This document shows, in pieces, positions 1 through 58,612 of a stretch of DNA of 58,612 bases (positions are counted from its first letter, which is position 1; each line of letters starts with the position of its first letter). The notes under the pieces were generated by a model. It was not told the DNA's origin. It searched no databases and was given only the letters and a program-made list of their open reading frames with translations. A program made the position numbers and the translations under genes. This DNA comes from a virus, in IMG/VR virus record IMGVR_UViG_3300045988_050777; one strand, 5' to 3'.

Positions 1-54
1 ACTCTTTTAGCAAGGGTGGGCGTTTTCTTTTCCGCATTTACAGCAAAAAAAGCC

Positions 55-62
55 TATCTTTG
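55..62 (+). promoter_or_regulatory. Bacteroidota -7 promoter box TATCTTTG upstream of the integrase
   Basis: Matches TAnnTTTG, 39 nt upstream of the ATG at 101. Confidence 0.5.
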
Positions 63-71
63 CGGTACAAA

Positions 72-90
72 GTTCTACAAATGTTCTACA
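72..90 (+). promoter_or_regulatory. Pair of GTTCTACA direct repeats (72..79, 83..90), candidate integrase arm-type sites
   Basis: The same 8-mer pair with 11-bp phasing recurs at 58263..58281, on the other side of the tRNA. Confidence 0.4.
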
Positions 91-100
91 GAAAAAAGAT

Positions 101-9139: not shown

Positions 9140-9784
9140 ATGAAAATTCAAATTGAAAAGGAGAAAGTACAAGCCGCCTATAAAGATGCTTGTGATGGTG
9201 TAAAGGAAATGCTGATTAAGATGTTCGGCAAAGAAGTCTGTGAGGCTGCAAAACCGACACTTGACGATTACAAAACGATCAAGAGTTACGAAGATGCTTG
9301 TGAAGTGCTGGGGCTAACTCCGATCCTTTCGGAAAACAGAAACAAGGCTCTTTGCGCACAGTTTCCAGATCACTACGATTTTCGGCAAAATATGCCTAAG
9401 CACATTATAGCCCTTATGAAGCTGGAAATTATTAGCTGGGCTTTGTGGGGTAAAGACTTCCAGCCAAAGCCAGATGCAGAGGGTAAGGAAATTTATTGGT
9501 ATCCGTGGTTTGCCTTATACACCAAAAAGGAAATGGAAGAAATGAGCGAAGAAAAACGTAAATCTCTGCGTGGTGCTCTGCTCGCTGGGAATGCGTATTA
9601 TGGTGCGATTGCGGGTTTCGGTTATCTGTATACGAGTGATCGCTCCTCGCACTCGTATGCGTACATTGGTTTCCGCTTGTGCCAAGAAACGCCAGAGAAA
9701 GCGGAATACTTCGGAAAACAATTCATTGAGTTGTGGGCTGAATATCTGGCTTTCGGTTTCAAAGTTACAGGACACTTAGAATAA
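9140..9784 (+). CDS. DGR target protein 2 (remote target carrying VR2)
   Basis: C-terminal GALLAGNAYYGAIAGFGYLYTSDRSSHSYAYIGFRLC is encoded by a 108-bp copy of the TR. 35 codons follow the VR. Confidence 0.8.
   Translation: MKIQIEKEKVQAAYKDACDGVKEMLIKMFGKEVCEAAKPTLDDYKTIKSYEDACEVLGLTPILSENRNKALCAQFPDHYDFRQNMPKHIIALMKLEIISWALWGKDFQPKPDAEGKEIYWYPWFALYTKKEMEEMSEEKRKSLRGALLAGNAYYGAIAGFGYLYTSDRSSHSYAYIGFRLCQETPEKAEYFGKQFIELWAEYLAFGFKVTGHLE
9571..9678 (+). repeat. DGR variable repeat VR2
   Basis: 100/108 identical to TR 53903..54010. All 8 mismatches fall at TR adenines. Followed by GTGCC, as VR1 is. Confidence 0.85.
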
Positions 9785-17605: not shown

Positions 17606-17626
17606 GCTATTTTTATGCTTAAAAGT

Positions 17627-17658
17627 GTGTTTAGTAAACACATAAATTCATATCTTTG
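17627..17658 (+). promoter_or_regulatory. GTGTT-N5-AACAC palindrome followed 9 nt later by -7 box TATCTTTG
   Basis: GTGTTTAGTAAACAC at 17627..17641 and TATCTTTG at 17651..17658. Same layout as 52097..52128. Confidence 0.5.
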
Positions 17659-17676: not shown

Positions 17677-18123
17677 TTGAAAGCTATGCTGATAATTGAT
17701 GTTCTTATCGTGTTTGCCGTGATAGTTGGCGTTCTGTTTGTGTTGCATAATTGGGGCGGCTACCTTGTAAACAAGTGGATGCCAGCCGACAATATGAAGC
17801 AAGGTGATGTGATGTACATTTACCTGAACAACGAATATAACAGGAAAGCGACCATTTCAAAGGTTGAGGAAAACCGTGTCTTTATCTATGACAAACTGCC
17901 TTTGCCTTTGTCCTATCGTGGCAAGTTCTATGCTGTTGGCGTAGATGTGTCGGATAACAGCCGTTTCCTATACATGAGGAAGCGTAGATATATCATACCG
18001 TGCCGGATTGTAGAGCGTTTCCGCAAATCTATAGGGCTGGATCAGTATCTGGATAATCTGCCAGTGAGTGAGGTTGAGGAAACGGAAGATAACGAGGAAA
18101 AGGAGGCAGAGGATGAAGTGTAG
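17677..18123 (+). CDS. Membrane-anchored hypothetical protein
   Basis: N-terminal TM helix and acidic C-terminus. Confidence 0.45.
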   Translation: MKAMLIIDVLIVFAVIVGVLFVLHNWGGYLVNKWMPADNMKQGDVMYIYLNNEYNRKATISKVEENRVFIYDKLPLPLSYRGKFYAVGVDVSDNSRFLYMRKRRYIIPCRIVERFRKSIGLDQYLDNLPVSEVEETEDNEEKEAEDEV

Positions 18124-24495: not shown

Positions 24496-26949
24496 ATGGC
24501 TAAGTACATAAACGAAAAGAAGCTACAGCAGGAGTTATTCAAGCGCACGGAGGGGTATGCTGCCGAAGTGCGTAAAATATATCTGGATTCACTGGGTAAA
24601 ATCATTGAGCTTGTGAAAGGCACGGAGCTTGAAGATGGTAAGCCGTTTTCCTTTTCGGAGTATGGCTACAGTGAAGATGTTACGCCCATACTTCGCAATA
24701 TGTACAGCCAGACTTACCAGACGATCCGAAACAGCGTACAAAAGGAGTGGCTTTTATCCAACGAAAATAACGATGCTTTGGTTAAAAGTGTGTTTGGTGA
24801 ACAATCTATAGAGGATAACCACTTTGCCCGGTTCTTTCTCCGCAACATGGAGGCTATGGATGCTTTCTTTGCCAGAAAGACAAAGGACGGCTTAAACCTA
24901 TCGCAAAAGGTTTGGAAGTACACAGGGATGTACAAAGAAGAGCTTGAAAAGACTTTGGATCTGGCTATCGGTGAGGGCATACCAGCCAACAGGCTTGCAA
25001 CCAAGATTAAAGAGTACCTGAACGACCCGGATAGGTGGTACAGGCGTTTCCGTGTGAAGATCGGAGAAGATGAGAACGGAAATCCTATCTATGGCAGGAA
25101 ATGGAAACGCAGGGTGTACGACCAAACAACAGAAACCTACAAATGGGTGGATGATGATCCGAAGAAATACCACCCCGGAAAGGGTGTTTACCGTTCCTCA
25201 TATCGTAACGCTCAAAGGCTTGCCCGGACAGAAACAAACATTGCCTATAGGACTGCCGACTACACCCGTTGGGAGCAACTGGATTTTGTGGTAGGCATTG
25301 AAATCAAGTTGAGCAACAACCACCCCATACATGACATTTGCGATGATCTGAAAGGGATCTATCCGAAAACATTCAAATGGACTGGCTGGCATCCTAACTG
25401 TAGGTGCTATCAAGTGCCAGTGCTGGCAAAGGATGAGGAAATAGAAAAGATGTTGGATCGGCTTCTGGAGGATGAGAACGCTACACTTGAAAACAGCGAG
25501 AATGCCGTAGAGGACTTTCCTACACATTTCAAAGGATGGGTAAAGGCTAATGAGGATCGTATCAATGAAGCGACCTCAAAGGGAACTTTGCCGTACTTCA
25601 TACGGGACAATAAAAGCGGTGTGGATGAGATATTGCACCCTCTGACACCAGAACAGAAGCATCATAAGGAATTGGTAGGTAAATACGGAGAAAGTGCCGT
25701 ACAAGCCTTATATGATGCTTTTGATGCGTTCAAGGCAAAAATATCCGTAGGGGATCTTCCGTACCAGATAAAGAAGCTGGAGTTTGAAAAGAAATGGGTA
25801 GCCGACAAAAACAAGTTTCCGACTTCGCCAGAAATGGTGAAGATGCTTGAAAAGGAACTGGAATCCGTAAAGGCTCAATATGAAATACAGTTAGCCGTAG
25901 ATGCTGCCAAACCTTTGCTGGAGTACAAGAGCAAAAGCAAGCCTTTGAAAGCATTGCAAAATGAACTGAATGAGGCTATCAATGGCGGAAAGACTGCAAC
26001 GGAGATTAGAACACTGACTGATAAGGTTAAAGCGAAGATCTATGAGGTAGAGAAAGCCAGACTTTCAAAGCTGGCAAAGCAAGGTGATGGATCTACCATT
26101 GACTTGTACGCTACAGCGGAAGAGAAGTTGGAAATTGCCCGGCTTCAAGATGCTTATGATAAGGCTTTGGCTCAATACGGTAGCCAGTGGGATAGTAATG
26201 TTGGGTATGCCTACAAGCGTCTTGCTGAATACAAGAAAGAACTTGCATTGAAGTATGTTGATAAGCAAGGCAAACTGGTTAAACTGAACGGAGAAACGGA
26301 AGAACTTGCGAAAAAGGCTCTGGATGAGTATGTCAATGCACCTGTAAACCATTCCGGGAATAATGCTATTGGTGGCAGATGGCAGAACTACAGTAGCGAA
26401 GAGGATAAGATGAGGGCATACAGCAAAAAGACTGGCATTCCAGTAGATGAGCTTGCTTTGATCAATCGCTACACCTATGGCTCTAAATGGTGCAATAATT
26501 ATGGCTATGGCATAGTAGATCCGTACTTCGGGAAAGTTGAGGATTACGGAGGATTGTGCCAGAAATACTATCCGGCTCATAACGCAGCACTGGAGAAAAT
26601 GCCACGGTATAACGGTACTGTTTTATCTGGTATTAGCTTTGATTCTATGAAGCTGGAGAAGTATATCAAGGAAATGCAACAGTGCTTATCGTCTGGAACT
26701 CCGTATGTAAACAAGGCTTTTATGTCAAGCACCACAAGCATAGAGAACACGGCAATCTTTGGCGATAACCTTATGCTGGTGATCAAGAGCAAGAAAGGTG
26801 TGGATGTGAAAGCCATATCACACTACCCCAATGAAGATGAGGTTGTGTTTCGTGCCGGATCACGCTTCAAGGTGCTAAAGGTGTACCAAGAAACAGAGCG
26901 CAAATTTGGCTTTGGTAAAGGATGGGTAGTTGAACTGGAAGAGTTATAA
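24496..26949 (+). CDS. Minor head protein (SPP1 gp7 / Mu F-like) fused to a C-terminal ADP-ribosyltransferase domain
   Basis: NAQRLARTETNIAYRTADY (gp7/MuF motif). C-terminal R-S-E ART motifs: PRYNG, FMSSTTS, NEDEVVF. Confidence 0.8.
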   Translation: MAKYINEKKLQQELFKRTEGYAAEVRKIYLDSLGKIIELVKGTELEDGKPFSFSEYGYSEDVTPILRNMYSQTYQTIRNSVQKEWLLSNENNDALVKSVFGEQSIEDNHFARFFLRNMEAMDAFFARKTKDGLNLSQKVWKYTGMYKEELEKTLDLAIGEGIPANRLATKIKEYLNDPDRWYRRFRVKIGEDENGNPIYGRKWKRRVYDQTTETYKWVDDDPKKYHPGKGVYRSSYRNAQRLARTETNIAYRTADYTRWEQLDFVVGIEIKLSNNHPIHDICDDLKGIYPKTFKWTGWHPNCRCYQVPVLAKDEEIEKMLDRLLEDENATLENSENAVEDFPTHFKGWVKANEDRINEATSKGTLPYFIRDNKSGVDEILHPLTPEQKHHKELVGKYGESAVQALYDAFDAFKAKISVGDLPYQIKKLEFEKKWVADKNKFPTSPEMVKMLEKELESVKAQYEIQLAVDAAKPLLEYKSKSKPLKALQNELNEAINGGKTATEIRTLTDKVKAKIYEVEKARLSKLAKQGDGSTIDLYATAEEKLEIARLQDAYDKALAQYGSQWDSNVGYAYKRLAEYKKELALKYVDKQGKLVKLNGETEELAKKALDEYVNAPVNHSGNNAIGGRWQNYSSEEDKMRAYSKKTGIPVDELALINRYTYGSKWCNNYGYGIVDPYFGKVEDYGGLCQKYYPAHNAALEKMPRYNGTVLSGISFDSMKLEKYIKEMQQCLSSGTPYVNKAFMSSTTSIENTAIFGDNLMLVIKSKKGVDVKAISHYPNEDEVVFRAGSRFKVLKVYQETERKFGFGKGWVVELEEL

Positions 26950-45166: not shown

Positions 45167-46337
45167 TTTAATCCTCTACTTGCCGTTTGACGATCCGGAC
45201 GGTAGCAAGGCATACGATTTTTCATTAAGCAGGGCTGATGCAACGCTTTCTGACGGTGCAACCTTTTCCAAAATAGCGAAGAGCGGTAAATCTTTGTCTA
45301 TGAATGGTGCTGGTGAGTGCCAGACGGACAAGGCTATACCCCTAAGCGGAGATTTCACGCTGTGTTGCTATGTGTACCCGGCAACAAACAAACTGGGCTG
45401 GCTTCTGAACTTTGACGGTGTGGATAACTATCTGGAGCAATGGGTGAGCGTAATGCCTAACAACTGGTATTTCTTTGCCTTTGTGAAGTCCGGCAACACA
45501 TTCGAGGTGTACCAGAACACAAGCCGGATCTTCAAAGATACCATATCCGGCACTCCGAAAGGTCTATCACTGAATGATGAGAGCCTTAACGGTACAAAGT
45601 CACTCATTGATGAGTTGCGTTTGTTCAATGTGGCAAAGTCTGCCACGGAGGTAATGAAGCTACAGGCAAATACCGATGTGGAATACTATATAGACGGAAA
45701 GAACACTAAAGACTTTGGCGTATATGTTTCCGCTTCTTCCGGGCTTCTGGGTAGGTTGGAAAGGAAAGAAAGTCTGGAAGTGGATTGGGATAACTACCAC
45801 GGAAAGGTGATTGACTTGAAGCGACCACGATACAAGGAGCGCACGATCACGCTTGATTGCTTTATAGAGGCTTCCAGCCGATCGGAGTTTGTAAACTGGG
45901 TAAATCTCTTTATGGAGCAATTCGACAAAGAGGGTACGGTGCGCCTGAAATGCGAGTATGACGGAAAGGCAAAGCCTCTGGTGTATGAGGTGTATGTGCC
46001 TGATGAGGTTGATGTGGAAAAGACTTGGGGGACATACAACAATGATCTGATGGTTGGCACATTCTCTTTGAAGCTGGTAGAATGTGAGCCAGTGAAAAAA
46101 GTATTGCGCCATATCGGAAATGCCAACAGCAAGGCTACAATAACCGTTACCAGTACAAAGTTCCTTAATGTGTATTGGGGTGATGGAAGCCACACATTCA
46201 ATGTGCATGGGACGGATGTAGCTTTGGAACACACTTATACCGAAGCCGGAGAATACGACATTATTGTAAGCGGTGTAATTGAGGATATAGAGGAATTTTC
46301 CACTAATGCGATCGTGATATGGGAGAAATTGAGGTAA
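45153..46337 (+). CDS. Distal tail protein-like, with an N-terminal LamG-like domain
   Basis: ATG at 45153. LILYLPFDDPDGS... (LamG-like). The C-terminal half is Dit-like. Confidence 0.5.
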   Translation: MIDNNLILYLPFDDPDGSKAYDFSLSRADATLSDGATFSKIAKSGKSLSMNGAGECQTDKAIPLSGDFTLCCYVYPATNKLGWLLNFDGVDNYLEQWVSVMPNNWYFFAFVKSGNTFEVYQNTSRIFKDTISGTPKGLSLNDESLNGTKSLIDELRLFNVAKSATEVMKLQANTDVEYYIDGKNTKDFGVYVSASSGLLGRLERKESLEVDWDNYHGKVIDLKRPRYKERTITLDCFIEASSRSEFVNWVNLFMEQFDKEGTVRLKCEYDGKAKPLVYEVYVPDEVDVEKTWGTYNNDLMVGTFSLKLVECEPVKKVLRHIGNANSKATITVTSTKFLNVYWGDGSHTFNVHGTDVALEHTYTEAGEYDIIVSGVIEDIEEFSTNAIVIWEKLR

Positions 46338-49300
46338 TCAAGCGCAAAGGCGGCACTATCCAGCTATTCAGCAGAGATCCGTTCTGTACCATAAAATCGG
46401 CAACGCAGAACATATCTCTGATGGGGGATGATAACATACAGTTGTCTATTATCTCCACTGAATTGCTGGACTTCGAGAAAGGAGATAAAATCATAGTGGG
46501 CGGTGAAGAGTACACTATCCGCACACGTGTAGCCCGTGAAATGAAAACGGATAGATACTACCAGTATGATGCAGTATTCTATGGAGTGATGTATGAACTG
46601 ATGAAAGCCCAATACAGGAATACGGACGAAAGCGGAAAATCTACTTCCATGACTTTTGACCTTACTTATTCCATTCGGGATTTCGTCAAGGTGATCATAT
46701 ACAATATGAACCGTGATTATCCGGGCTTGTGGGCTTTTGATGAAGCGAATTGCCCGGACACAGAGCCACGCACTATATCCTTTTCACGTCAAAACTGCCT
46801 ACAGGTGTTGCAATCGCTATGTAGCAAGGATAATTTCAAGCTGGAGTTCCGTATTACCCAAGACAACGGAGTGCGTACTATCCATATTGGAAAGTTCGGC
46901 ACAAAGGTTATCCCACCAAGCGGAAGTGATTACTTTGAGTGGGGTAAGGGTGGTGGTTTGTTTACCCTCAAAGATCAAAAGGTGGATGATAAAGCCATTA
47001 TTACCCGTCTTTGGGTGGAGGGCGGCACTACAAACATACGGAGCGACTACAGGGACTATTCAGAACGCTTGCAACTGCCTTACCCAAAGCGTATGAATAA
47101 GAATGAGCATACGTTGGCAGACGGAACTGTTATCCCGGCAAACAGTGAAATGATCGGTATTGATGATGATACCAAGCGTTATATTGAGGATGCGGAACTG
47201 GCGCAGGAGATAGGCAGCGAAGAGGATAGCGAACAATATGATGATATTTTCCCGAAGCGTACAGGAAAGGTTACTGCCATTGTTGAGGATGATATAAATT
47301 CATTCGTTGATGATACAATGGATTTCGACCTGAACGAAAAGGACGAAAACGGGACAAAGTACCTTATCAATGGCGTAACGGCAAAAATCACATTCATAAC
47401 TGGCAGGCTTTCCGGACAACAGTTTGAAGTAAAAGCAGATGGCGGATATGACCATTCGGCTAAGAAGTTCACGATCATACCTTTCACTGACAAACGAGGG
47501 CTGACCATACCGACCACCGACAATGATGCTTTCCGCATTGAGGTTGGAAACAGCTATAAGATCACGGATATAAATCTGCCAAAGTCCTATGAGGATAATG
47601 CGGAAGAAGATCTTTGGTATGCCGGGTATGATGATTTCAAGCCACGCACACAGTCCAGAGTGCAGTATGCTCTGACCTTTGACCGCTCCTATTTTCTGGA
47701 GAATATGCCGGATGATAGCGAAACCAGCGTGTTCAAGGTTGGGGACTATGTGCCAGTGCGTGATGTGCGTTTCGGTGTGGAGAAGAGCATAAGAATCCAG
47801 AAGATAAGCCGTAACTTGCTTGTGGATCACGATTACAGCCTTACCCTATCCGACACTACCACCATATCCATAAGCCAGCAGACGGTGATAGATGTGATAG
47901 AGCATAACAAGATCATAGAGGCAAACCGACTGAAAGATTTGAGCAAGGCACGCAGGGGATGGCGTACAACAGAAGAGCTAAGGAATATGGTGTATGACAC
48001 AGACGGGTATTTTGATCCAGAAAACATACGACCTAATTCTATTGACACCAATATGCTTACCGTTGGATCGAAGAGCCAGCAGTTTGTTCTGATCGGTGTG
48101 GTGATGCAAGCCAATGTAAACGGTAATGCCAACAGATTTGATGCTTCTTCCGGCATATTGGCACACTTGACAATAGACGAAACCACCATTAAGCAATGGA
48201 CTTTGGGCGAATTGAGCGTTACGCTATCCGAGCAGGGAGGTTACTATGTATTTGCCAAATGTAGCAAGACTGGATCGAATGGCGTGTTTGTCGTTACGCA
48301 AACACCCTACAAGTTTGAGCCTACAGAAGATCCGAACAACTACTATTTTCAGATAGGTATCATAAGCTCATTATATCCTGATGATAATTTCCGTGACTTC
48401 GTAACCACTTATGGATTTACCAGAATCAACGGAAAGACTATCACCACTGGAACGATTGTTACCAGTGACGGTGAGTGCTATTTGGATTTGGATGGGAACA
48501 AATTCAGGATTGGGGATGCCACAAGCTCTATTGATTGGAATGTGACGGCAAGAAAACAGCTTACCTTGCATAATGTACGCCTATTAAGCGATTCTGGCGA
48601 TGTGTCGTTTATCGGTGTGTATCGTGGAGATTACAACGAGGAATATGTGTACTATACAGGCGATGAGGTTAGCTATAGCAATGGTGCGGAAACTTGCACA
48701 TACAGGTACATTTATCCTACTCCGGCAAAGGGGATTACACCAACCAATACGACTTATTGGAAAGTAGTAGCAAAAGGGCAGCAAGGACAGAAAGGCGATG
48801 ATGGTTTACCCGGTGAAGATGGGCTACCCGGAAAGAGTTACTACACATGGATTCGTTATGCTGATGATGTAAACGGTACTGGCATTTCTGATAATCCTAC
48901 AGGAAAAGGCTTCATAGGTTTTGCATACAACAAGGAAACTCCGACTGAAAGCAACGACCCAAAGGATTATAAATGGTCTGACATAATGGGTAAAGATGGC
49001 GTTCCGGGTGAGCCGGGCGAAGATGGAAAAACGCTTTATACATGGATTGCCTATTCTGACAATGCAGACGGTAATCCTATGTACCAGCAGCCCAAAGATA
49101 CCACCATGTACATAGGTATTGCTACAAATAAAGAAACGGCTACAGAAAGCGATGATCCGAAAGATTATGTTTGGAGTAAATTTAAGGGTGACGATGGTTT
49201 GCCGGGCGTTCCGGGTGCTGATGGAAAGACAAGCTATTTCCATATCAAATACTCTTCCGTACAGAATCCAACCAGTGCCTCACAAATGACGGAAACACCG

Positions 49301-51820
49301 TCTGATTACATAGGTACTTATGTGGATTATACGCAGGCAGATAGTACAGATCCTAAGAAATACACTTGGGCAAGATTCAAAGGATTCAATGGTGAGGACG
49401 GATTGCCGGGCGTGAATGGTGAGGACGGAAAGACTTCATACCTACATATCAAATACAGTGATAATGGGGGATTATCGTTCACTGCAAACAATGGTGAAGA
49501 TCCGGGCGCATATATCGGTCAGTATGTGGACTTCGTACAGAAAGATAGCGACAACCCTACTGACTATACTTGGAGTTTGATAAAGGGTGAAAGCGGTGCG
49601 GCTGGAAGCGATGCGACAACAGGAGAATACTATGAGTATAGGTATGCCAAAAACGGATCGACGGTTACACCTCCGGCTCTTGATGCAGATGCCGAAAACC
49701 CGGCTGGGTGGAGTACGACAATGCCGACCGTTGGCACACTGGAATACTTGTGGTGTACGATGGCTAAGAAATCCGGGCTATCGGATAAGAAAGTGTTTGA
49801 TATTCCCGTACAGCAAGGGGAAACTACGCTTCTGGATATTACCGGGCATGGCATATCTGGAGCGTTGAAGAATGGTGCTTCCGTTGTGCAAGACGGTAGC
49901 CGATATGCCGTTGATCTTAGCGACAATGCGGAGTGTCAGATTAATTGGGATCTTCCGTTTGGTCAAAGTTTCACGCTCTGTTTTTGGATGAAAACGGATC
50001 AGACGCTCATACGGTGGATGCTGAACGGCTACAATGGCAGGGACTATGTGGAGAAGAGTATAACCGTGTCAAAGAACACTTGGTTTCATGTTGCCTTGCG
50101 TTTCAATGACAGAACTGTATCTATATTCATTAATGGATCTCTGGTGCAGACAGGCAGCATAAATGAAGAGGTGGTAGGCTTTTCCATGTACGATGATAAT
50201 ATGTTTGGCTCTTCCGTGTTCTATGACAACATAAGGCTTTATGATGGTGCATTATCGGCAACCGATATAGGCAAGGATAAGAGCGGAGCAAGCGACAAAC
50301 TGGTACAGAACTGGTGTACCCCTTTCCGTATCAATCCTTACGATGGAAAGGATGGTGTAGGTATAAACGCCGTTGATGTGGAGTATGCCAAAAGCTCTTC
50401 TAACACTACAGCACCAACAAGCGGATGGCAAACCACCGCTCCAGCGTGGGAAGATGGGAAATATATCTGGTCAAGGACAAAAACCGTGCTTACCGATGGA
50501 TCTACCGAATACACTAAGGCTGTTTGTATCACTGGCGGCAAGGGTGCAACTGGCTCTACTGGCGTGGGTGTGAAATCCATTGTGGAACAATACTACCTAT
50601 CCAGTAGCCCTACTTCGCAAACTGGCGGCTCATGGAGTACCACCAGACCTACTTGGAAAGATGGCTGGTATATCTGGACGAGATCCGTTATTACCTATAC
50701 CAACGGCACTTCTACCACTACAGCGGCTATCTGTGTAACAGGTGGAAAGGGAGAAACTGGTGATCCGGGTGAAAAAGGCGATCAAGGAGAAAGCCCGGCA
50801 GCGGTATATCAAGGCACATACAGCAGTTCCAAAACCTACTATGGTACAAAGTACAGGCTTGATGTAGTGAAGTACAACGGTATTTTCTATATCGCCCGTA
50901 TTGATGCAGGAACTTTTTCGGGTGTCGTGCCTACCAATACAAGCAAATGGAATCCTTTCGGTGCGCAATTCGAGAGCGTGGCTACCAACTTGCTTCTGGC
51001 TGAAAATGCCAACATAGCAGGATGGGTATTCAGGAACAACCGACTGGAAGCGCAGAATGGTAGTGTATATCTGGACGGTGTGAACGGAGAAGTACGTTTG
51101 CAGGGAACAATGCAGTTATCTACTGGCTGGTCTGGTGTTTTCTCTGATGTGAATATATTCTATCTTCCAGCGACAACAAGCTTAAAAACTATATCTATGG
51201 GGCAAGATATGGATGATATTGGTAAAGTGTGCCGACTGTACAACGGTGGAGAATATGGTCAAGGCAATTACCTAATTGGAGTATATAGTTTTACAGCAGA
51301 GGCAGGATTTTCAAGTAGCGTTCTTGATTATTACGCCTTAGTAAGACCTCAAGAAATAGTAGAAATGACTTGTTTTGAATTGCCCGGATCAACATCAACG
51401 GTAAGAAAAGGAAGATGGGAAATAACAAGCCGTTTCGCATGGACTGATTTTGTTAACTCTGGAGCAAAAGGCAGACATCCTCTTATACTGGCAATAGGCA
51501 GGATTAGTGGAACTAATTCAGGAGCTTCGATAAGCGGAACTTGGTGGAATGGAAAGTCTATCACTTCCATTCTTTCGGTGTCACGACAAGCAGAGGGTAA
51601 ATATAGGGTTTCATTTTCGAGTTCCAATATACCCTCTGGATATAGGGTAATGCTAACTGGATATGGAACTGTGTATAACAACTCTGATTCACCAGTAAAG
51701 GGTACTATTATGGCTCTTTCAACAACTTATTTCGATGTTTGGACTTCTGACGATTCAACAAGAAATGACGGAAGTTGTGAGTTTATAATCTTAGCTCCAG
51801 AATGGCAATACAAATTTTGA
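46319..51820 (+). CDS. Large tail fibre / host-specificity protein with collagen-like repeats and a LamG-like domain
   Basis: 1833 aa. Gly-X-Y runs (GDDGLPGEDGLPGKS and others), four ~60-aa tandem modules, LamG-like LCFWMKTD...WFHVALRF. Confidence 0.8.
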   Translation: MGEIEVIKRKGGTIQLFSRDPFCTIKSATQNISLMGDDNIQLSIISTELLDFEKGDKIIVGGEEYTIRTRVAREMKTDRYYQYDAVFYGVMYELMKAQYRNTDESGKSTSMTFDLTYSIRDFVKVIIYNMNRDYPGLWAFDEANCPDTEPRTISFSRQNCLQVLQSLCSKDNFKLEFRITQDNGVRTIHIGKFGTKVIPPSGSDYFEWGKGGGLFTLKDQKVDDKAIITRLWVEGGTTNIRSDYRDYSERLQLPYPKRMNKNEHTLADGTVIPANSEMIGIDDDTKRYIEDAELAQEIGSEEDSEQYDDIFPKRTGKVTAIVEDDINSFVDDTMDFDLNEKDENGTKYLINGVTAKITFITGRLSGQQFEVKADGGYDHSAKKFTIIPFTDKRGLTIPTTDNDAFRIEVGNSYKITDINLPKSYEDNAEEDLWYAGYDDFKPRTQSRVQYALTFDRSYFLENMPDDSETSVFKVGDYVPVRDVRFGVEKSIRIQKISRNLLVDHDYSLTLSDTTTISISQQTVIDVIEHNKIIEANRLKDLSKARRGWRTTEELRNMVYDTDGYFDPENIRPNSIDTNMLTVGSKSQQFVLIGVVMQANVNGNANRFDASSGILAHLTIDETTIKQWTLGELSVTLSEQGGYYVFAKCSKTGSNGVFVVTQTPYKFEPTEDPNNYYFQIGIISSLYPDDNFRDFVTTYGFTRINGKTITTGTIVTSDGECYLDLDGNKFRIGDATSSIDWNVTARKQLTLHNVRLLSDSGDVSFIGVYRGDYNEEYVYYTGDEVSYSNGAETCTYRYIYPTPAKGITPTNTTYWKVVAKGQQGQKGDDGLPGEDGLPGKSYYTWIRYADDVNGTGISDNPTGKGFIGFAYNKETPTESNDPKDYKWSDIMGKDGVPGEPGEDGKTLYTWIAYSDNADGNPMYQQPKDTTMYIGIATNKETATESDDPKDYVWSKFKGDDGLPGVPGADGKTSYFHIKYSSVQNPTSASQMTETPSDYIGTYVDYTQADSTDPKKYTWARFKGFNGEDGLPGVNGEDGKTSYLHIKYSDNGGLSFTANNGEDPGAYIGQYVDFVQKDSDNPTDYTWSLIKGESGAAGSDATTGEYYEYRYAKNGSTVTPPALDADAENPAGWSTTMPTVGTLEYLWCTMAKKSGLSDKKVFDIPVQQGETTLLDITGHGISGALKNGASVVQDGSRYAVDLSDNAECQINWDLPFGQSFTLCFWMKTDQTLIRWMLNGYNGRDYVEKSITVSKNTWFHVALRFNDRTVSIFINGSLVQTGSINEEVVGFSMYDDNMFGSSVFYDNIRLYDGALSATDIGKDKSGASDKLVQNWCTPFRINPYDGKDGVGINAVDVEYAKSSSNTTAPTSGWQTTAPAWEDGKYIWSRTKTVLTDGSTEYTKAVCITGGKGATGSTGVGVKSIVEQYYLSSSPTSQTGGSWSTTRPTWKDGWYIWTRSVITYTNGTSTTTAAICVTGGKGETGDPGEKGDQGESPAAVYQGTYSSSKTYYGTKYRLDVVKYNGIFYIARIDAGTFSGVVPTNTSKWNPFGAQFESVATNLLLAENANIAGWVFRNNRLEAQNGSVYLDGVNGEVRLQGTMQLSTGWSGVFSDVNIFYLPATTSLKTISMGQDMDDIGKVCRLYNGGEYGQGNYLIGVYSFTAEAGFSSSVLDYYALVRPQEIVEMTCFELPGSTSTVRKGRWEITSRFAWTDFVNSGAKGRHPLILAIGRISGTNSGASISGTWWNGKSITSILSVSRQAEGKYRVSFSSSNIPSGYRVMLTGYGTVYNNSDSPVKGTIMALSTTYFDVWTSDDSTRNDGSCEFIILAPEWQYKF

Positions 51821-52064: not shown

Positions 52065-52096
52065 TGGTTTGAGGGCATATTTTTTCGTCTAAAAGT

Positions 52097-52128
52097 GTGT
52101 TTAAGGAACACATAAATAAGTATATTTG
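52097..52128 (+). promoter_or_regulatory. GTGTT-N5-AACAC palindrome followed 9 nt later by -7 box TATATTTG (promoter of the DGR target operon)
   Basis: GTGTTTAAGGAACAC at 52097..52111 and TATATTTG at 52121..52128. Confidence 0.5.
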
Positions 52129-52153: not shown

Positions 52154-52453
52154 ATGGATAATGATATGTACAGCCTTAGAGTGTTGGCTAAAGGTCAAGT
52201 GTCGGATCTTAGCAAGGGATTCAATCTTGGCGGCAAGCCGTTTTCGGTCTATGTGCGTAGCAAGAGCGCAACGGAAATGGCTACTGATACGCTTCTGAAT
52301 TGCAAGCTGATCTGCGATACTTCGTTTGGCAACATACCAGTACCAGTTGGCGACTGGACACCAGCGGCTATAGTGGAGATTGCCCCAAACGCTATAGACT
52401 TGCAGAAGTATGAGATTTATTGGGGTGCAGGTGAAATCATTAGAAACAACTGA
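52154..52453 (+). CDS. Hypothetical protein upstream of DGR target 1
   Basis: 99-aa ORF. Its stop lies 1 nt before the target ATG. Confidence 0.45.
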   Translation: MDNDMYSLRVLAKGQVSDLSKGFNLGGKPFSVYVRSKSATEMATDTLLNCKLICDTSFGNIPVPVGDWTPAAIVEIAPNAIDLQKYEIYWGAGEIIRNN

Positions 52454-52454
52454 T

Positions 52455-53816
52455 ATGGGACTTTTGTTAGGTAGCGGTAACACGAAACCGCAATATCCGT
52501 ATGATATGTGGTACGGAATAGAGGGAGATTTTACAAGCCGTGATTACAAGCTCAAAAGAGTTGGTAATCTGGACTTGCACAAGACGCTTCCGATTCAGGC
52601 GAAACTGAAACGCTTCGTTGAGAATCCAGACGGATCGGTAAAATACTACTTGCATCCGAATGACAGCCGTAAGAAAGACAGCGGTGCTGCCGCTGTGATT
52701 GACAGCACGGACGGTAATGTGATGCTGGAGAAGCCGGAGTATTATTTCAGGCTGGAGATTGAGGGTACAAAGTGGATTCGTGCCTACTCTGAATATCCTT
52801 TGCCGGGCTTTGTCAAGATGGAGCGCAAAACGGTATCTCCGTGGTTTGCTACTATCAAGATTGATACGAATGAAGCCGTTTCCGGCTGTTTCCTCACTTG
52901 GGACGGTGACAATATCGCCCGTGATGCAAGCGGCTATGTGAAGCTGACCGCCAATGCTGCCAACTACAGGGGTGGTTCTGGCTCTGGAGATGCTGCCAAA
53001 GATGGCACTTACAACTCCATGCTTGGTATGCCTCGCACTTCTATCTCTAAGGTAACAGCCCGTGCCGCTTGCAAGAATGGCACTCACTTGGGCGTGTACC
53101 GTGTGTACAATGAAATCGCTTGGTTGCAGAGGCTGGAGTATGCTTCATTGCATTGTCAGGATGCCTACAATGAAACTCTTACCGCTGATGGCTATCATCA
53201 AGGCGGACTGGGCAACGGTACGGCTGTGAACGGTACGGAGTGGAACACTTGGGGCGGCTATAAGCCTTTCATTCCTTGCGGTGTGACTGCAACGCTGGGC
53301 AACAATACTGGCAGAGTGCCTTATGTGATCAAGGGCTGGACTGGTGGCGATAAGACGGTACAGGTTACTTCTTATCGTGGATTGGAAGTGCCTTATGAAT
53401 ACATTTGGTATCTTGCGGATGATGTGCTTATCTGGCACAAGGCAGATGTTTCTATCGCCTATGTCTGTGAAGATCCTACCAAATTCACTTCACACTCCGA
53501 TTCCGCTACTTCCGTGCCAGATGGCTATGAGGCTATCACTGAATTGCCACGCAATGATGGATATATCCTACAGTTCGCCCATTCAAGCAAGGGCTATGCT
53601 TTCCCTGAAACGGTAGGTGGTTCTGCCGCTGCTGGTGGCTGTGATTATTTCTACACTTGTGTAGATGATTCCGGCTGGGCTTCTCCGGGCTGGTATGGTG
53701 CTCTGCTCGCTGGGCGTGCGAATTCTGGTGCGGCTGCGGGTTTCGGTTATCTGGATACGAATGGTCGCTCCTCGCACTCGGGTGCGTACATTGGTTTCCG
53801 CTTGTGCCGTTTTTAA
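52455..53816 (+). CDS. DGR target protein 1 (C-terminal VR1; probable receptor-binding/tail accessory protein)
   Basis: ATG at 52455 (track ORF starts at 52410). Ends ...GALLAGRANSGAAAGFGYLDTNGRSSHSGAYIGFRLCRF. Confidence 0.85.
   Translation: MGLLLGSGNTKPQYPYDMWYGIEGDFTSRDYKLKRVGNLDLHKTLPIQAKLKRFVENPDGSVKYYLHPNDSRKKDSGAAAVIDSTDGNVMLEKPEYYFRLEIEGTKWIRAYSEYPLPGFVKMERKTVSPWFATIKIDTNEAVSGCFLTWDGDNIARDASGYVKLTANAANYRGGSGSGDAAKDGTYNSMLGMPRTSISKVTARAACKNGTHLGVYRVYNEIAWLQRLEYASLHCQDAYNETLTADGYHQGGLGNGTAVNGTEWNTWGGYKPFIPCGVTATLGNNTGRVPYVIKGWTGGDKTVQVTSYRGLEVPYEYIWYLADDVLIWHKADVSIAYVCEDPTKFTSHSDSATSVPDGYEAITELPRNDGYILQFAHSSKGYAFPETVGGSAAAGGCDYFYTCVDDSGWASPGWYGALLAGRANSGAAAGFGYLDTNGRSSHSGAYIGFRLCRF
53696..53803 (+). 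repeat. DGR variable repeat VR1
   Basis: 96/108 identical to the TR. All 12 mismatches fall at TR adenines. Confidence 0.9.
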
Positions 53817-53902
53817 CGGACTGCAAAGCGGCGGTACACGGGGGCTTTTTTGCGAACGTGAATTGAGAAAGAAATGAGAATAAACAGGTTGATGGTGATA
53901 GG

Positions 53903-54010
53903 TGGTGCTCTGCTCGCTGGGAATGCGAATAATGGTGCGAATGCGGGTTTCGGTTATCTGAATACGAATAATCGCTCCTCGCACTCGAATGCGAACATTG
54001 GTTTCCGCTT
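53903..54010 (+). repeat. DGR template repeat (TR)
   Basis: Noncoding copy with nine AAY codons in the VR frame. 22 adenines. 150 nt upstream of the RT. Confidence 0.9.
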
Positions 54011-54160
54011 TTACCGTGGTTTCAACTTTACAAGATATAACTGTGATCACCATGACCTTACCACACAGGGGCTATCGGCACTGCTGGTAGCTGGTAAAAA
54101 AAGACGAATTAAAACGGTGTTAGTAAGTAATTGAACGCTCCGATTTAGACCAACGGCACA

Positions 54161-55348
54161 ATGGGCTTGATAAAGACAGAATACGGCTTATGTTACAGTA
54201 GCGATACGATGTTTAACGGCTATAGTGATATGGAGGATTGCGGATATTATATTGGCGATACTGGTAGCCTCTATATATCCCAAAGCAAGAAGCTAAAGAA
54301 TATCTATCCTCTTATCTACGAATCCGCAAACCTCGTTAGGGCGCAATATAATGCACAGAAAGGCAAGGGCGATCGTACAGAGATACGGAAGTTCAACAAT
54401 AACATTATTGAGTGCCTGACAGACTTGTATTTCCAGCTAAGGAATATGACCTACCAGCCGGGCGAATACAAGACTAAGACTATATATGAGCCGAAAGAAA
54501 GGCTGATTATGATTGCGCCTTTCTATCCTGATCGTATAGTCCACCATTGCGTTATCAATGTGCTTGGGCAACATTGGACGCACATATTCACGTCAAACAC
54601 TTACGCTTGTATCAAAGGCAGAGGCGTACACAAGTGCATGGAAGATCTGCATAGGGATATGATGCTGGATAAGAAAGGCACTAAGTATTGCTTGAAGATA
54701 GATATAAGAAAGTATTTCGACAATGTGGATCACGAATCAATGAAGCGGATAATCCGTTACACCATAGCGGATGATCAGATGCTTTGGCTGTTGGATAGAA
54801 TTATAGATAGCAACGGTAAAACAATCGGTTTGCCAATAGGTAATTTCACAAGCCAGTATTTTGCCAACCTATACCTCGCATACTTCGATCACTGGGTGAA
54901 AGAAGATCTTGCAAGAATGGTGATGGCGAAATTTGGGGTGAAGATATACTACTACCGATATATGGATGATATAGTAGTCCTTTGCTCCAGCAAGGAAGCA
55001 CTGCATTTCATACTTGACATGATGGGGCTTTACTTGGCTTCGGAACTGAAACTGGAGATAAAACCGAACTGGCAGATCTTCCCGGTCGATGATCGTTGTA
55101 TAGACTATGTGGGCTTCAAACAGAATCACTACGGTATTTTGCTCCGAAAGGGCATACTTATGAGGTTCTATAGGAAGCTGAACAAAGTCAAGAAGAGATA
55201 CGAGATCAAAGACATAAACGATGTAAAACACCTCTTCCCGTCTGAATACGGCTGGGTAATCAGATGCTCGGAGGAACACAGTAAATTCATCTTTAATAAA
55301 TGTTTGAACAATGGAAACAACAGGATTATTTATCGGGTTGCTGGCTGA
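54161..55348 (+). CDS. DGR reverse transcriptase
   Basis: YRYMDDIVVL (YxDD) and IGLPIGNFTSQYFANLYL (the DGR-type SQ motif). Adjacent to the TR. Confidence 0.9.
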   Translation: MGLIKTEYGLCYSSDTMFNGYSDMEDCGYYIGDTGSLYISQSKKLKNIYPLIYESANLVRAQYNAQKGKGDRTEIRKFNNNIIECLTDLYFQLRNMTYQPGEYKTKTIYEPKERLIMIAPFYPDRIVHHCVINVLGQHWTHIFTSNTYACIKGRGVHKCMEDLHRDMMLDKKGTKYCLKIDIRKYFDNVDHESMKRIIRYTIADDQMLWLLDRIIDSNGKTIGLPIGNFTSQYFANLYLAYFDHWVKEDLARMVMAKFGVKIYYYRYMDDIVVLCSSKEALHFILDMMGLYLASELKLEIKPNWQIFPVDDRCIDYVGFKQNHYGILLRKGILMRFYRKLNKVKKRYEIKDINDVKHLFPSEYGWVIRCSEEHSKFIFNKCLNNGNNRIIYRVAG

Positions 55349-55742
55349 CGAAAAGCCGGAGGTTATCTATGACTTGTACAACGGGCAGGGTACATTCATG
55401 TACAACCACAACATCAAAGAAGTATCGGTAATCAAGGAAAAAGAGGGTGGCATAACTGTTACCTCTGACGATGACGAAAAGGCTACTGGCAAGATGTTCC
55501 AGTATGACAGCGTTAGGGTGGAATACCCAAAGACAGCGGACAACATTTTCAGCACATTGCTTACTGCAAAGTACCCGTCTAAGACGGAAAGCAAGCTGAT
55601 GAATGAATACCAGTCTGCCATGCTCGGACTGCTGGATGAGAGCTACAAGAAGCCTTATGAGGACTTTTTGAAAGATCGTCTTGCTATACGCAACATGATT
55701 GATGCCGATGCCGAAACGTACAACATTCCAACTGATTTATAG
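55311..55742 (+). CDS. Hypothetical acidic protein
   Basis: 143-aa ORF overlapping the RT 3' end. The start is uncertain. Confidence 0.4.
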   Translation: METTGLFIGLLADEKPEVIYDLYNGQGTFMYNHNIKEVSVIKEKEGGITVTSDDDEKATGKMFQYDSVRVEYPKTADNIFSTLLTAKYPSKTESKLMNEYQSAMLGLLDESYKKPYEDFLKDRLAIRNMIDADAETYNIPTDL

Positions 55743-58513: not shown

Positions 58514-58612
58514 ACTCTTTTAGCAAGGGTGGGCGTTTTCTTTTCCGCATTTACAGCAAAAAAAGCCTATCTTTGCGGTACAAAGTTCTACAAATGTTCT
58601 ACAGAAAAAAGA
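58514..58612. repeat. 99-bp direct terminal repeat, right copy
   Basis: Identical to 1..99. Contains the integrase promoter region. Confidence 0.95.

Follow-up and report, generated by a model that had tools for sequence, protein, structure and literature searches.

The viral sequence analysed here is IMG/VR record IMGVR_UViG_3300045988_050777, a stretch of 58,612 nucleotides that is referred to at its full length as the window. In this sequence, a cassette flanked by the tail module on one side and the lysis genes on the other was found to have the organisation of a diversity-generating retroelement (DGR), in which a target gene ending in a variable repeat (VR) is followed by a template repeat (TR), a spacer and a reverse transcriptase (RT) gene, while a second variable repeat lies in another region of the window. 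An earlier note, written from the letters of the sequence, had proposed a DGR at this site, and the parts of that reading that could be tested, namely the RT, the adenine pattern, the layout and the variation among relatives, were upheld. The features that carry the argument are as follows.

52455..53816, + strand: DGR target gene 1, 453 amino acids (aa), with the C-terminal ~40 residues diversified
53696..53803, + strand: VR1, codons 414-450 of the target, the predicted recipient of adenine-mutagenised complementary DNA (cDNA)
53903..54010, + strand: TR, 108 bp, non-coding, with 22 adenines; read in the VR frame, it contains nine AAY codons
54011..54160, + strand: structured spacer RNA between TR and RT, with two hairpins and a long-range helix
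54161..55348, + strand: DGR RT, 395 aa, with the RYMDD (YMDD) and IGLPIGNFTSQ motifs
9571..9678, + strand: VR2, inside the open reading frame (ORF) 9140-9784 (214 aa, phrog_11581)

The TR and VR1 were identical at 96 of 108 positions, and all 12 mismatches were placed at TR adenines and in the first two positions of AAY codons, as read in the frame of ORF 52455-53816. Among the 22 adenines of the TR, 18 belonged to the nine AAY codons (eight AAT and one AAC), and the other four were found in TAT, ACG, CAC and ATT. The probability that 12 mismatches would all land on the 22 adenines by chance is 2.3e-10. VR2 was recovered by an adenine-tolerant scan of the whole window as the one further copy beyond VR1, and its eight mismatches to the TR also fell exclusively at TR adenines (8/8, P = 9e-7); none of the 86 non-A positions of the TR was mismatched in either VR1 or VR2. 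The repeat coordinates, the identity, the individual mismatch positions and the codon context of the adenines had all been given in the earlier note, and each of them was reproduced.

VR1 ended 13 nt before the stop codon of ORF 52455-53816, this stop codon was separated from the TR by 86 bp, and the TR was located 150 nt upstream of the RT gene on the same strand. The homology between the repeats ended in ...CCGCTT, after which the VR continued with GTGCC (53804-53808) and the TR with TTACC (54011-54015). An ORF overlapping the TR (53874-54134) was rejected as spurious, corresponding to the open VR frame read through the TR in a region with covariation-supported RNA structure. The matching region is split into two small coding sequences in the annotation of Bacteroides phage Versailles (ON453897.1), an induced prophage of Bacteroides caecimuris I48 that was the closest named genome, with 75% nucleotide identity over the cassette.

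The second component of the cassette is the RT, for which the earlier note had reported the YMDD and IGLPIGNFTSQ motifs at 54161..55348, and both were confirmed. The protein matched the Pfam family RVT_1 (E 1e-18), and its best match among the sequences of the PDB was the Bordetella bRT (8ub7, E 2.9e-27, 98 bits), better by ~18 orders of magnitude than the retron and group II intron RTs of the same database, which reached E values of 1e-8 to 1e-10 and no more than 41 bits. A BLASTP comparison with the bRT taken from the genome of Bordetella phage BPP-1 returned 29% identity over 312 aa, nearly all of bRT (E 2e-33), in which IGLPIGNFTSQYFAN of the window RT was aligned with VGIPIGSLTSQLFAN of bRT, and YMDD with YMDD. 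In RTs of the DGR clade, an SQ-containing motif, (I/V)GxxxSQ, replaces the QG...SP motif of group II RTs, and the catalytic motif is YxDD. Among phages, the closest RT was that of Versailles (73% identity), followed by those of crAss-like phages (42-45%); crAssphage LMMB and the archaeal virus ANMV-1 were among the next relatives, and Bordetella phages were present among the 105 matching records. The DGR of crAssphage LMMB has been described in the literature (PMC7290462). A scan of the window region against Rfam detected only the RNA family RT-17, with no intron RNA domains and no retron msr/msd, and neither a maturase nor an endonuclease extension was found on the RT. The earlier note had regarded a grouping with group II intron or retron RTs as the outcome that would count against a DGR; by similarity, the best solved relative was bRT, and these comparisons support that the RT belongs with the DGR RTs.

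Evidence for diversification comes from the relatives of this element, for which assemblies and protein clusters were compared in place of read pile-ups. Relatives of the RT were numerous, with 414 in IMG/VR and 140 in bacterial genomes, the latter comprising Bacteroides, Parabacteroides, Duncaniella, Prevotella/Segatella and other Bacteroidales, and the order of target with its VR, TR and RT was conserved in ~85 loci. Three IMG/VR contigs (L003, L004 and L010) encoded an RT 99-100% identical to that of the window, and their VR1 differed from the window at 15-18 of 108 positions, in comparison with 3-21 of 1241 positions in the target gene outside the VR, none of 99 after the VR and one of 108 in the TR. 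The same restriction was observed at the protein level in 16 members of the 90%-identity cluster holding the closest target homologue, in which four to nine different residues were present only at positions 421, 423, 424, 427, 432, 434, 436, 437, 441, 443, 445 and 446. These columns corresponded to the codons containing TR adenines, and the other variable columns had no more than three residues. In one related target cluster, 36,228 distinct sequences were counted at 90% identity or more. Variation among near-identical genomes, in assemblies and in protein clusters, was in this way tied to the TR-adenine positions.

When 77 unique TR/VR pairs were considered together, 984 of 1735 TR-adenine sites differed (57%) versus 33 of 6581 non-A sites (0.5%). 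The adenine specificity of the mismatches described in the earlier note was seen in the window and also in ~85 related loci. The median proportion of adenines substituted per pair was 59%, close to the ~50% described for Bacteroides and Bordetella DGRs (bioRxiv 10.1101/2024.11.15.621889). Moreover, the non-A substitutions specific to the TR of a given lineage were carried by its own VR, as illustrated by the C at TR position 53982, which is specific to the window (the relatives have A) and was found in both VR1 and VR2. Such shared lineage-specific changes indicate that the information flows from TR to VR, so that the two repeats evolve in concert. As a separate observation, the VR at L010:3536-3643 presented a single non-adenine difference from its own TR (TTCGGGTTT versus TTCGGTTAT), an example of the rare 0.5%.

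The 150-nt spacer between TR and RT was also found to be conserved and structured. Its helices are designated P1 (54059-62/54093-96), P1b (54070-76/54086-92), P2 (54115-20/54137-42) and the long-range P0 (54014-17/54153-56). RNAalifold, applied to 29 diverse sequences of the family, returned 20 pairs, with 98.9% of cells paired and compensatory changes at eight pairs; when the columns were shuffled 500 times this covariation was never reached, and the signal disappeared once the partner columns were slid. The Rfam model RT-17 (RF03020) aligned over its full length with window positions 54054-54161, although its score of 25 bits (E 0.012-0.021) stayed under the gathering score of 40.4, which was passed at the same position by the distant relatives L103 (51 bits) and L108 (54.8 bits). 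Both RNAs are placed directly 5′ of the RT ORF and, with model positions 1-95 aligned, share a first hairpin of the UGCC...GGCA type, an A-rich linker, a second hairpin with a GUAG/UCGAA-like loop and a 3′ ...GCA.ACA tail. They differ in the first hairpin, which carries in the window a 27-nt insertion forming an extra helix supported by covariation. By this alignment, the window RNA is a divergent, expanded relative of RT-17 that scores below membership.

Regarding the diversified protein, target 1 matched phrog_5302 ('tail protein', E 4e-119) and no Pfam family. Its start at 52455 agreed with the homologue annotated in Versailles, and a start at 52410 would give a longer ORF sharing sequence with the gene before it. 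When the last 153 residues were used in an exhaustive HMMER search, 394 representatives were retrieved, in which this domain formed the C-terminal part of proteins with lengths of 150-1624 aa; phage-fibre repeats or CBM_5_12, fn3, collagen or T4 gp9/10 domains were also present in a few of these proteins. That the domain recurs at the C-terminal end of fibre-like proteins agrees with a tip module for receptor binding, and it is plausible, considering also the gene position and the PHROG assignment, that target 1 is a receptor-binding accessory protein, as the earlier note had suggested. The variable proteins of DGRs display the VR on a C-type-lectin (or Ig) fold. The earlier note had also envisaged a C-type-lectin fold for the C-terminal region, which could not be confirmed. 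The only hint of it was that a profile of the wider family had as its best PDB match the VR segment of Mtd, the BPP-1 target, although the match was weak (E 0.026, range 0.016-0.026) and hhalign gave it a probability of 3%. Two AlphaFold2 models, full-length and C-terminal, had a mean predicted local distance difference test (pLDDT) score of 61-63, with the VR below 40, and a Foldseek search of these low-confidence models against the PDB found nothing at E<0.001. Searches with the target against PDB sequences (phmmer and profile) and Pfam (E up to 10) likewise gave no C-type-lectin match.

In BPP-1, mutagenic homing also depends on the accessory protein Avd, for which several searches were carried out. 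None of six neighbouring ORFs matched the Avd-type families (23S_rRNA_IVP, four-helix-bundle) in Pfam or NCBIfam, a phmmer search of the 489 window ORFs with 50 aa or more, in which BPP-1 Avd served as the query, had no match under E 0.26, and no Avd, HRDC or MutS-like family of Pfam, NCBIfam or PHROG was matched by the genes flanking the cassette. DGRs with avd make up about 74% of the total, the remaining 26% being devoid of it, and Lineage 3 lacks avd altogether (Wu et al. 2018, PMC5758913). In that study, Lineage 3A is restricted to Bacteroides and relatives, Architecture A comprises the TR and RT and has no accessory gene, and Architecture E1 occurs only in Lineage 3a, together with CH1, a small acidic accessory protein of 160-169 aa and isoelectric point (pI) 4.7 (PMC5758913). 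A comparable gene follows the RT in the window:

55311..55742, + strand: acidic orf143, 143 aa, pI 4.5, which shares its first 38 nt with the 3′ end of the RT gene and matches phrog_11557

This gene was found directly after the RT in 109 related loci and retained 27-44% identity where the RT was only 43-50% identical. A PDB search with orf143 gave no Avd match. It is a candidate accessory gene, possibly of the CH1 type, being similarly small and acidic (pI 4.5 versus 4.7) but shorter (143 versus 160-169 aa), and it could replace Avd as a factor. The element as a whole fits the Avd-less Bacteroides lineage (Lineage 3A, Architecture A/E) when assigned by gene layout, sharing with Lineage 3/3A (Architecture A; E1) the missing avd, the target-TR-RT core, the Bacteroidales relatives and a small acidic ORF adjoining the RT.

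These results altogether indicate that the cassette is very probably a functional and recently active DGR, carried by a temperate phage of the siphovirus type that belongs to the Bacteroidales and whose genome is circular and ~58.5 kb long. Some observations weigh against this interpretation. The activity of the element is deduced from comparison between assemblies. The search for Avd consisted of Pfam and NCBIfam scans of the neighbours and a single-sequence phmmer search, while Avd proteins are poorly conserved, and the C-type-lectin fold of target 1 could not be confirmed from the low-confidence models (VR pLDDT <40). In addition, the top NCBIfam model for the RT was a group II intron RT/maturase, at 115 bits versus a cutoff of 300. 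This last result is weak counter-evidence, since no DGR-specific model was among the matches and the library seems to be without one.

The NCBIfam match, together with the PADLOC models that recognised the RT domain, would be expected if the TR were a duplicated 3′ fragment of the target, the RT came from another system such as a group II intron, a retron or a defence system, and the adenine pattern were coincidental or compositional. However, the PADLOC matches to the RT were generic RT-domain matches, as was the NCBIfam one, all of them far below the family cutoffs, and bRT was the best solved relative. An adenine-only pattern with P ~2e-10, a contrast of more than 100-fold between A and non-A sites over 77 pairs, a layout kept in ~85 loci, and searches that turned up neither intron RNA domains nor msr/msd, and no extension of the maturase or endonuclease type, effectively refute this explanation, whose probability is judged negligible. 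The same very low standing is given to hypervariability of the VR by recombination between phages or by ordinary diversifying selection, both acting without reverse transcription. The mosaic structure of the upstream fibre gene (324-545 differing positions in its last 1.6 kb) reveals that this module recombines often, but the VR changed only in those columns where the non-coding repeat next to it has an adenine, and the non-A columns interleaved with them stayed 99.5% identical. Slightly more room is left for a fossil DGR, with intact-looking parts that no longer diversify and VR/TR differences that are ancient. In its favour, the activity of the element is judged from assemblies, and Avd, essential in BPP-1, was undetected. 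Nevertheless, near-identical genomes had very different VRs, many VR variants coexisted in one 90% cluster, and non-A changes of the TR were mirrored in the corresponding VR, including the window-specific C shared by both VRs. The RT ORF, its catalytic motifs and the spacer RNA were also intact, and lineages without Avd are documented, which makes a fossil element very improbable.

The 3′ boundaries of the repeats bear on how the cDNA would be primed and directed to the VR. In BPP-1, these boundaries are the IMH (initiation of mutagenic homing) element of the VR and its TR counterpart IMH*. The corresponding elements of the window are listed below.

53802..53811, + strand: IMH-like 3′ boundary of VR1, TTGTGCCGTT, a perfect complement of RNA 54152-54161
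54009..54018, + strand: IMH*-like TR flank, TTTTACCGTG, forming four contiguous base pairs and isolated pairs with the primer-like segment
54152..54161, + strand: primer-like RNA segment AACGGCACA(A), the last A being the A of the RT start codon
53807..53819, + strand: short hairpin CCGTT-TTT-AACGG, overlapping the IMH and the stop codon (DNA fold z = -2.1)

The segment AACGGCACA(A) complemented the VR1 flank over 10 nt (53802-53811) and the VR2 flank over 7 nt (9677-9683, TTGTGCC), and primer/VR-flank complementarity of 8-10 nt was observed in the family loci with a resolved TR/VR boundary. GTGCCG followed the VR in 37 of 38 distinct VR flanks, and AACGGCAC preceded the RT in 29 of 29 aligned spacers. 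The asymmetry of GTGCC in the VR versus TTACC in the TR, which the earlier note had pointed out as IMH/IMH*-like, proved to be real: it was present in the large majority of ~85 loci, with the TRs of the family keeping TTACC or ATACC, and it matched the primer-like segment. In the locus L105, with an RT 50% identical, both partners had changed together, the VR reading CTGGGTCGT and the RNA ACGACCCAG. The hairpin was found at the 3′ position of the VR in most relatives with varying sequence, and it may be, by analogy, the counterpart of the stem-loop that BPP-1 has downstream of its VR. An outer inverted repeat (CCGCTT/AAGCGG) around the IMH of VR1 and VR2 was rejected as a conserved feature after being found in only 3 of 38 distinct VR flanks.

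The cDNA of BPP-1 is primed by the spacer RNA nicked at A56, and it was proposed that this primer pairs better with IMH than with IMH*, which would account for the directionality of homing (Naorem et al. 2017, PMC5703328). The integration of the cDNA in DGRs was still described as unresolved in 2026. When the same computation was applied to BPP-1 as a control, it returned Sp48-56 (AGGTGGTCA), whose final base is A56, the nucleotide known to prime, and which complements the IMH of the VR perfectly over 9 nt and the IMH* of the TR over 5 nt. The asymmetry in the window fits this primer-IMH model. For the window, three observations speak against the proposal. The primer-like segment was invariant in the 29 family sequences, as was P0 within the family, so the support from covariation comes from one distant locus, L105; no primer/VR complementarity was found in L103; and the GTGCC of the VR also encodes a conserved Cys (GFRLC), so that coding constraint alone could fix this flank. 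Among the distant RT lineages (L107-L162), in which the TR/VR boundaries are imprecise, no consistent primer/IMH complementarity was seen.

In the mechanism proposed for this DGR, the target, TR, spacer and RT, all on one strand, would probably be co-transcribed, and the TR-spacer RNA would fold into the conserved structure. The RT would copy the TR into cDNA, misincorporating opposite template adenines, and the cDNA would replace VR1, the 108 bp homologous to it in the 3′-terminal part of ORF 52455-53816, as well as VR2 at 9571-9678. By analogy with BPP-1, priming would most likely be provided by AACGGCACA(A) (54152-54161), which P0 would bring back onto the flank of the TR, so that the cDNA would start at about TR 54008-54009 from A54160 or A54161. 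The VR would be chosen as recipient by the same segment, which pairs perfectly with TTGTGCCGTT and poorly with the TR flank TTTTACCGTG. That this segment both primes the cDNA and selects the VR in an Avd-less lineage is a tentative proposal, to which somewhat less than even credence is given. Since 18 of the 22 TR adenines are in AAY codons, each such codon becomes NNY, which can encode 15 amino acids and no stop. In this way, ~1e13 variants of a surface patch of ~37 residues could be produced, and this patch probably binds the host receptor.

The resemblance to BPP-1 (mtd-avd-TR-brt) extends beyond the priming region. In both elements, a target with a 3′ VR is followed by the TR and then the RT on one strand, the mismatches are limited to adenines, the target is a tail protein, the IMH differs from the IMH*, a hairpin is placed near the 3′ end of the VR, and a spacer segment of 9-10 nt complements the IMH better than the IMH* (AACGGCACA(A) here and AGGTGGTCA there). 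However, avd is located between target and TR in BPP-1 and was not detected here, the TR has 108 nt instead of 134 nt, the (GC)14 element is missing from the window, and the primer-like segment abuts the RT start codon rather than lying in the middle of the spacer. The RT of the window has ~40 extra residues at the N-terminus and ~45 at the C-terminus relative to bRT, its target has no detectable sequence homology with Mtd beyond the weak match of the VR region, and a second, remote target is present in the window. The prophage-borne Bacteroides DGRs of Macadangdang et al. (bioRxiv 10.1101/2024.11.15.621889) are similarly phage-encoded with tail-fibre-like targets, but all five elements studied experimentally encode Avd-like proteins. 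Versailles, in turn, harbours a two-target DGR with adenine-only mismatches and the GTGCC/TTACC boundary. Its record labels the genes only as 'tail protein' and 'reverse transcriptase', no mention of a DGR was found in the papers naming phage Versailles that were searched, and the window represents a different species-level phage. A link to BV01 and the Salyersviridae was also considered and dropped, as the BV01 paper mentions neither an RT nor a DGR.

The second target deserves separate description. A VR usually occupies the 3′ end of its target gene; VR2 is atypical in that 35 codons follow it in ORF 9140-9784, and this ORF is placed in the early/recombination module, with RecT-like, MBL hydrolase and NinB-like neighbours, and not in the tail module. 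The same second target was present in Versailles (15 mismatches, adenine-only) and in one IMG/VR contig, and homologues of ORF 9140-9784 with ~35% identity were found in LoVEphage, BI-TP1 and PV4-TP1. It is unusual for a diversified protein to be encoded among early genes. A perfect direct repeat of 99 bp occupies both ends of the window (1-99 and 58514-58612), which indicates a complete, circularly assembled genome with 58,513 bp of unique sequence. Upon circular closure, the downstream distance from the TR to VR2, counted through the junction, is only ~14 kb.

The other genes of the genome are consistent with this picture. PHROG matches identified an integrase-like protein, a CI-like repressor, a terminase, a portal and a major head protein, and a 1783-aa tape measure protein, an 1833-aa fibre-like protein and an endolysin are also encoded; a gene set with integrase, repressor, head, tape measure and endolysin indicates a temperate siphovirus-type phage. 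The features immediately upstream of the DGR are the following.

46319-51820: ORF of 1833 aa with matches to tail-fibre and host-specificity PHROGs
52078..52128, + strand: promoter-like element with an inverted repeat, ending in TATATTTG, ahead of the orf99-target-TR-RT block
52154..52453, + strand: small acidic ORF (orf99), 99 aa, pI 4.9, directly upstream of the target and matching phrog_22750

The earlier note had placed the target just after the 1833-aa fibre gene. This gene does exist at 46319-51820 with tail-fibre matches, but two small ORFs (77 and 99 aa) separate it from target 1, and a homologue of the second of them, orf99, was found upstream of the target in 70 related loci. The promoter-like element contains a 28-nt core, TAAAAGTGTGTTTA-N3-AACACATAAAT, with an inverted repeat, of which exactly two copies occur in the window (17620-17647 and 52090-52117; none expected). 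Both copies were followed by a TAnnTTTG-like box, and the TATATTTG of the DGR copy is one that we take to be a Bacteroides-type -7 box, presumably of the consensus TAnnTTTG. The copy at 17620-17647 precedes a block of + strand ORFs that begins at 17677 and reaches the terminase gene. The element may be a phage-specific late promoter or operator. Scans for a terminator and a sigma-70 promoter between target and TR gave nothing convincing, with a scanner that does not include Bacteroides promoters, and from this arrangement orf99, target, TR and RT could plausibly be transcribed together.

Further observations were made elsewhere in the genome. The 3′ end of the fibre-like gene (50161-51820) was highly mosaic, with 324-545 differing positions in the contigs L003, L004, L005 and L011, the DGR cassettes of which were 97-99% identical to that of the window. 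This pattern indicates, at the sequence level, that the fibre tip would often be exchanged by recombination alongside DGR diversification. The 817-aa ORF 24496-26949 had matches to head-morphogenesis (minor head) proteins and to phrog_16625, 'Bxa ADP-ribosyl transferase' (E = 0), which suggests that it carries a virion-associated ADP-ribosyltransferase toxin domain. Finally, ~9 copies of the palindrome-like TTTGCCTAAGCAAA were present in the non-coding region 1372-1839, between the integrase-like gene (101-1423) and divergent regulatory genes, and they are probably an operator or origin-type repeat array.

The element leaves the existing knowledge of DGRs unchanged, its lineage having already been described, and it adds a DGR that is evidently active, from a family of temperate gut phages of the Bacteroidales that is both large and abundant. 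What a specialist might wish to pursue is limited to the way in which the comparisons back primer-IMH pairing, the placement of the primer-like segment at the RT start codon, the conservation of the acidic ORF, and a second target encoded among early genes. Among the relatives that can be cultivated, Versailles is the closest; it resides in B. caecimuris I48, a strain of the OMM12 mouse model, and has the same two-target Avd-less cassette. This strain is a tractable system in which DGR function without Avd, the cDNA priming site and the directionality conferred by the IMH could be addressed. If the proposed priming is true, the family would give independent comparative support for primer-IMH directionality outside Bordetella and without Avd, and priming (or RNA nicking) and translation of the RT would be mutually exclusive for each transcript.

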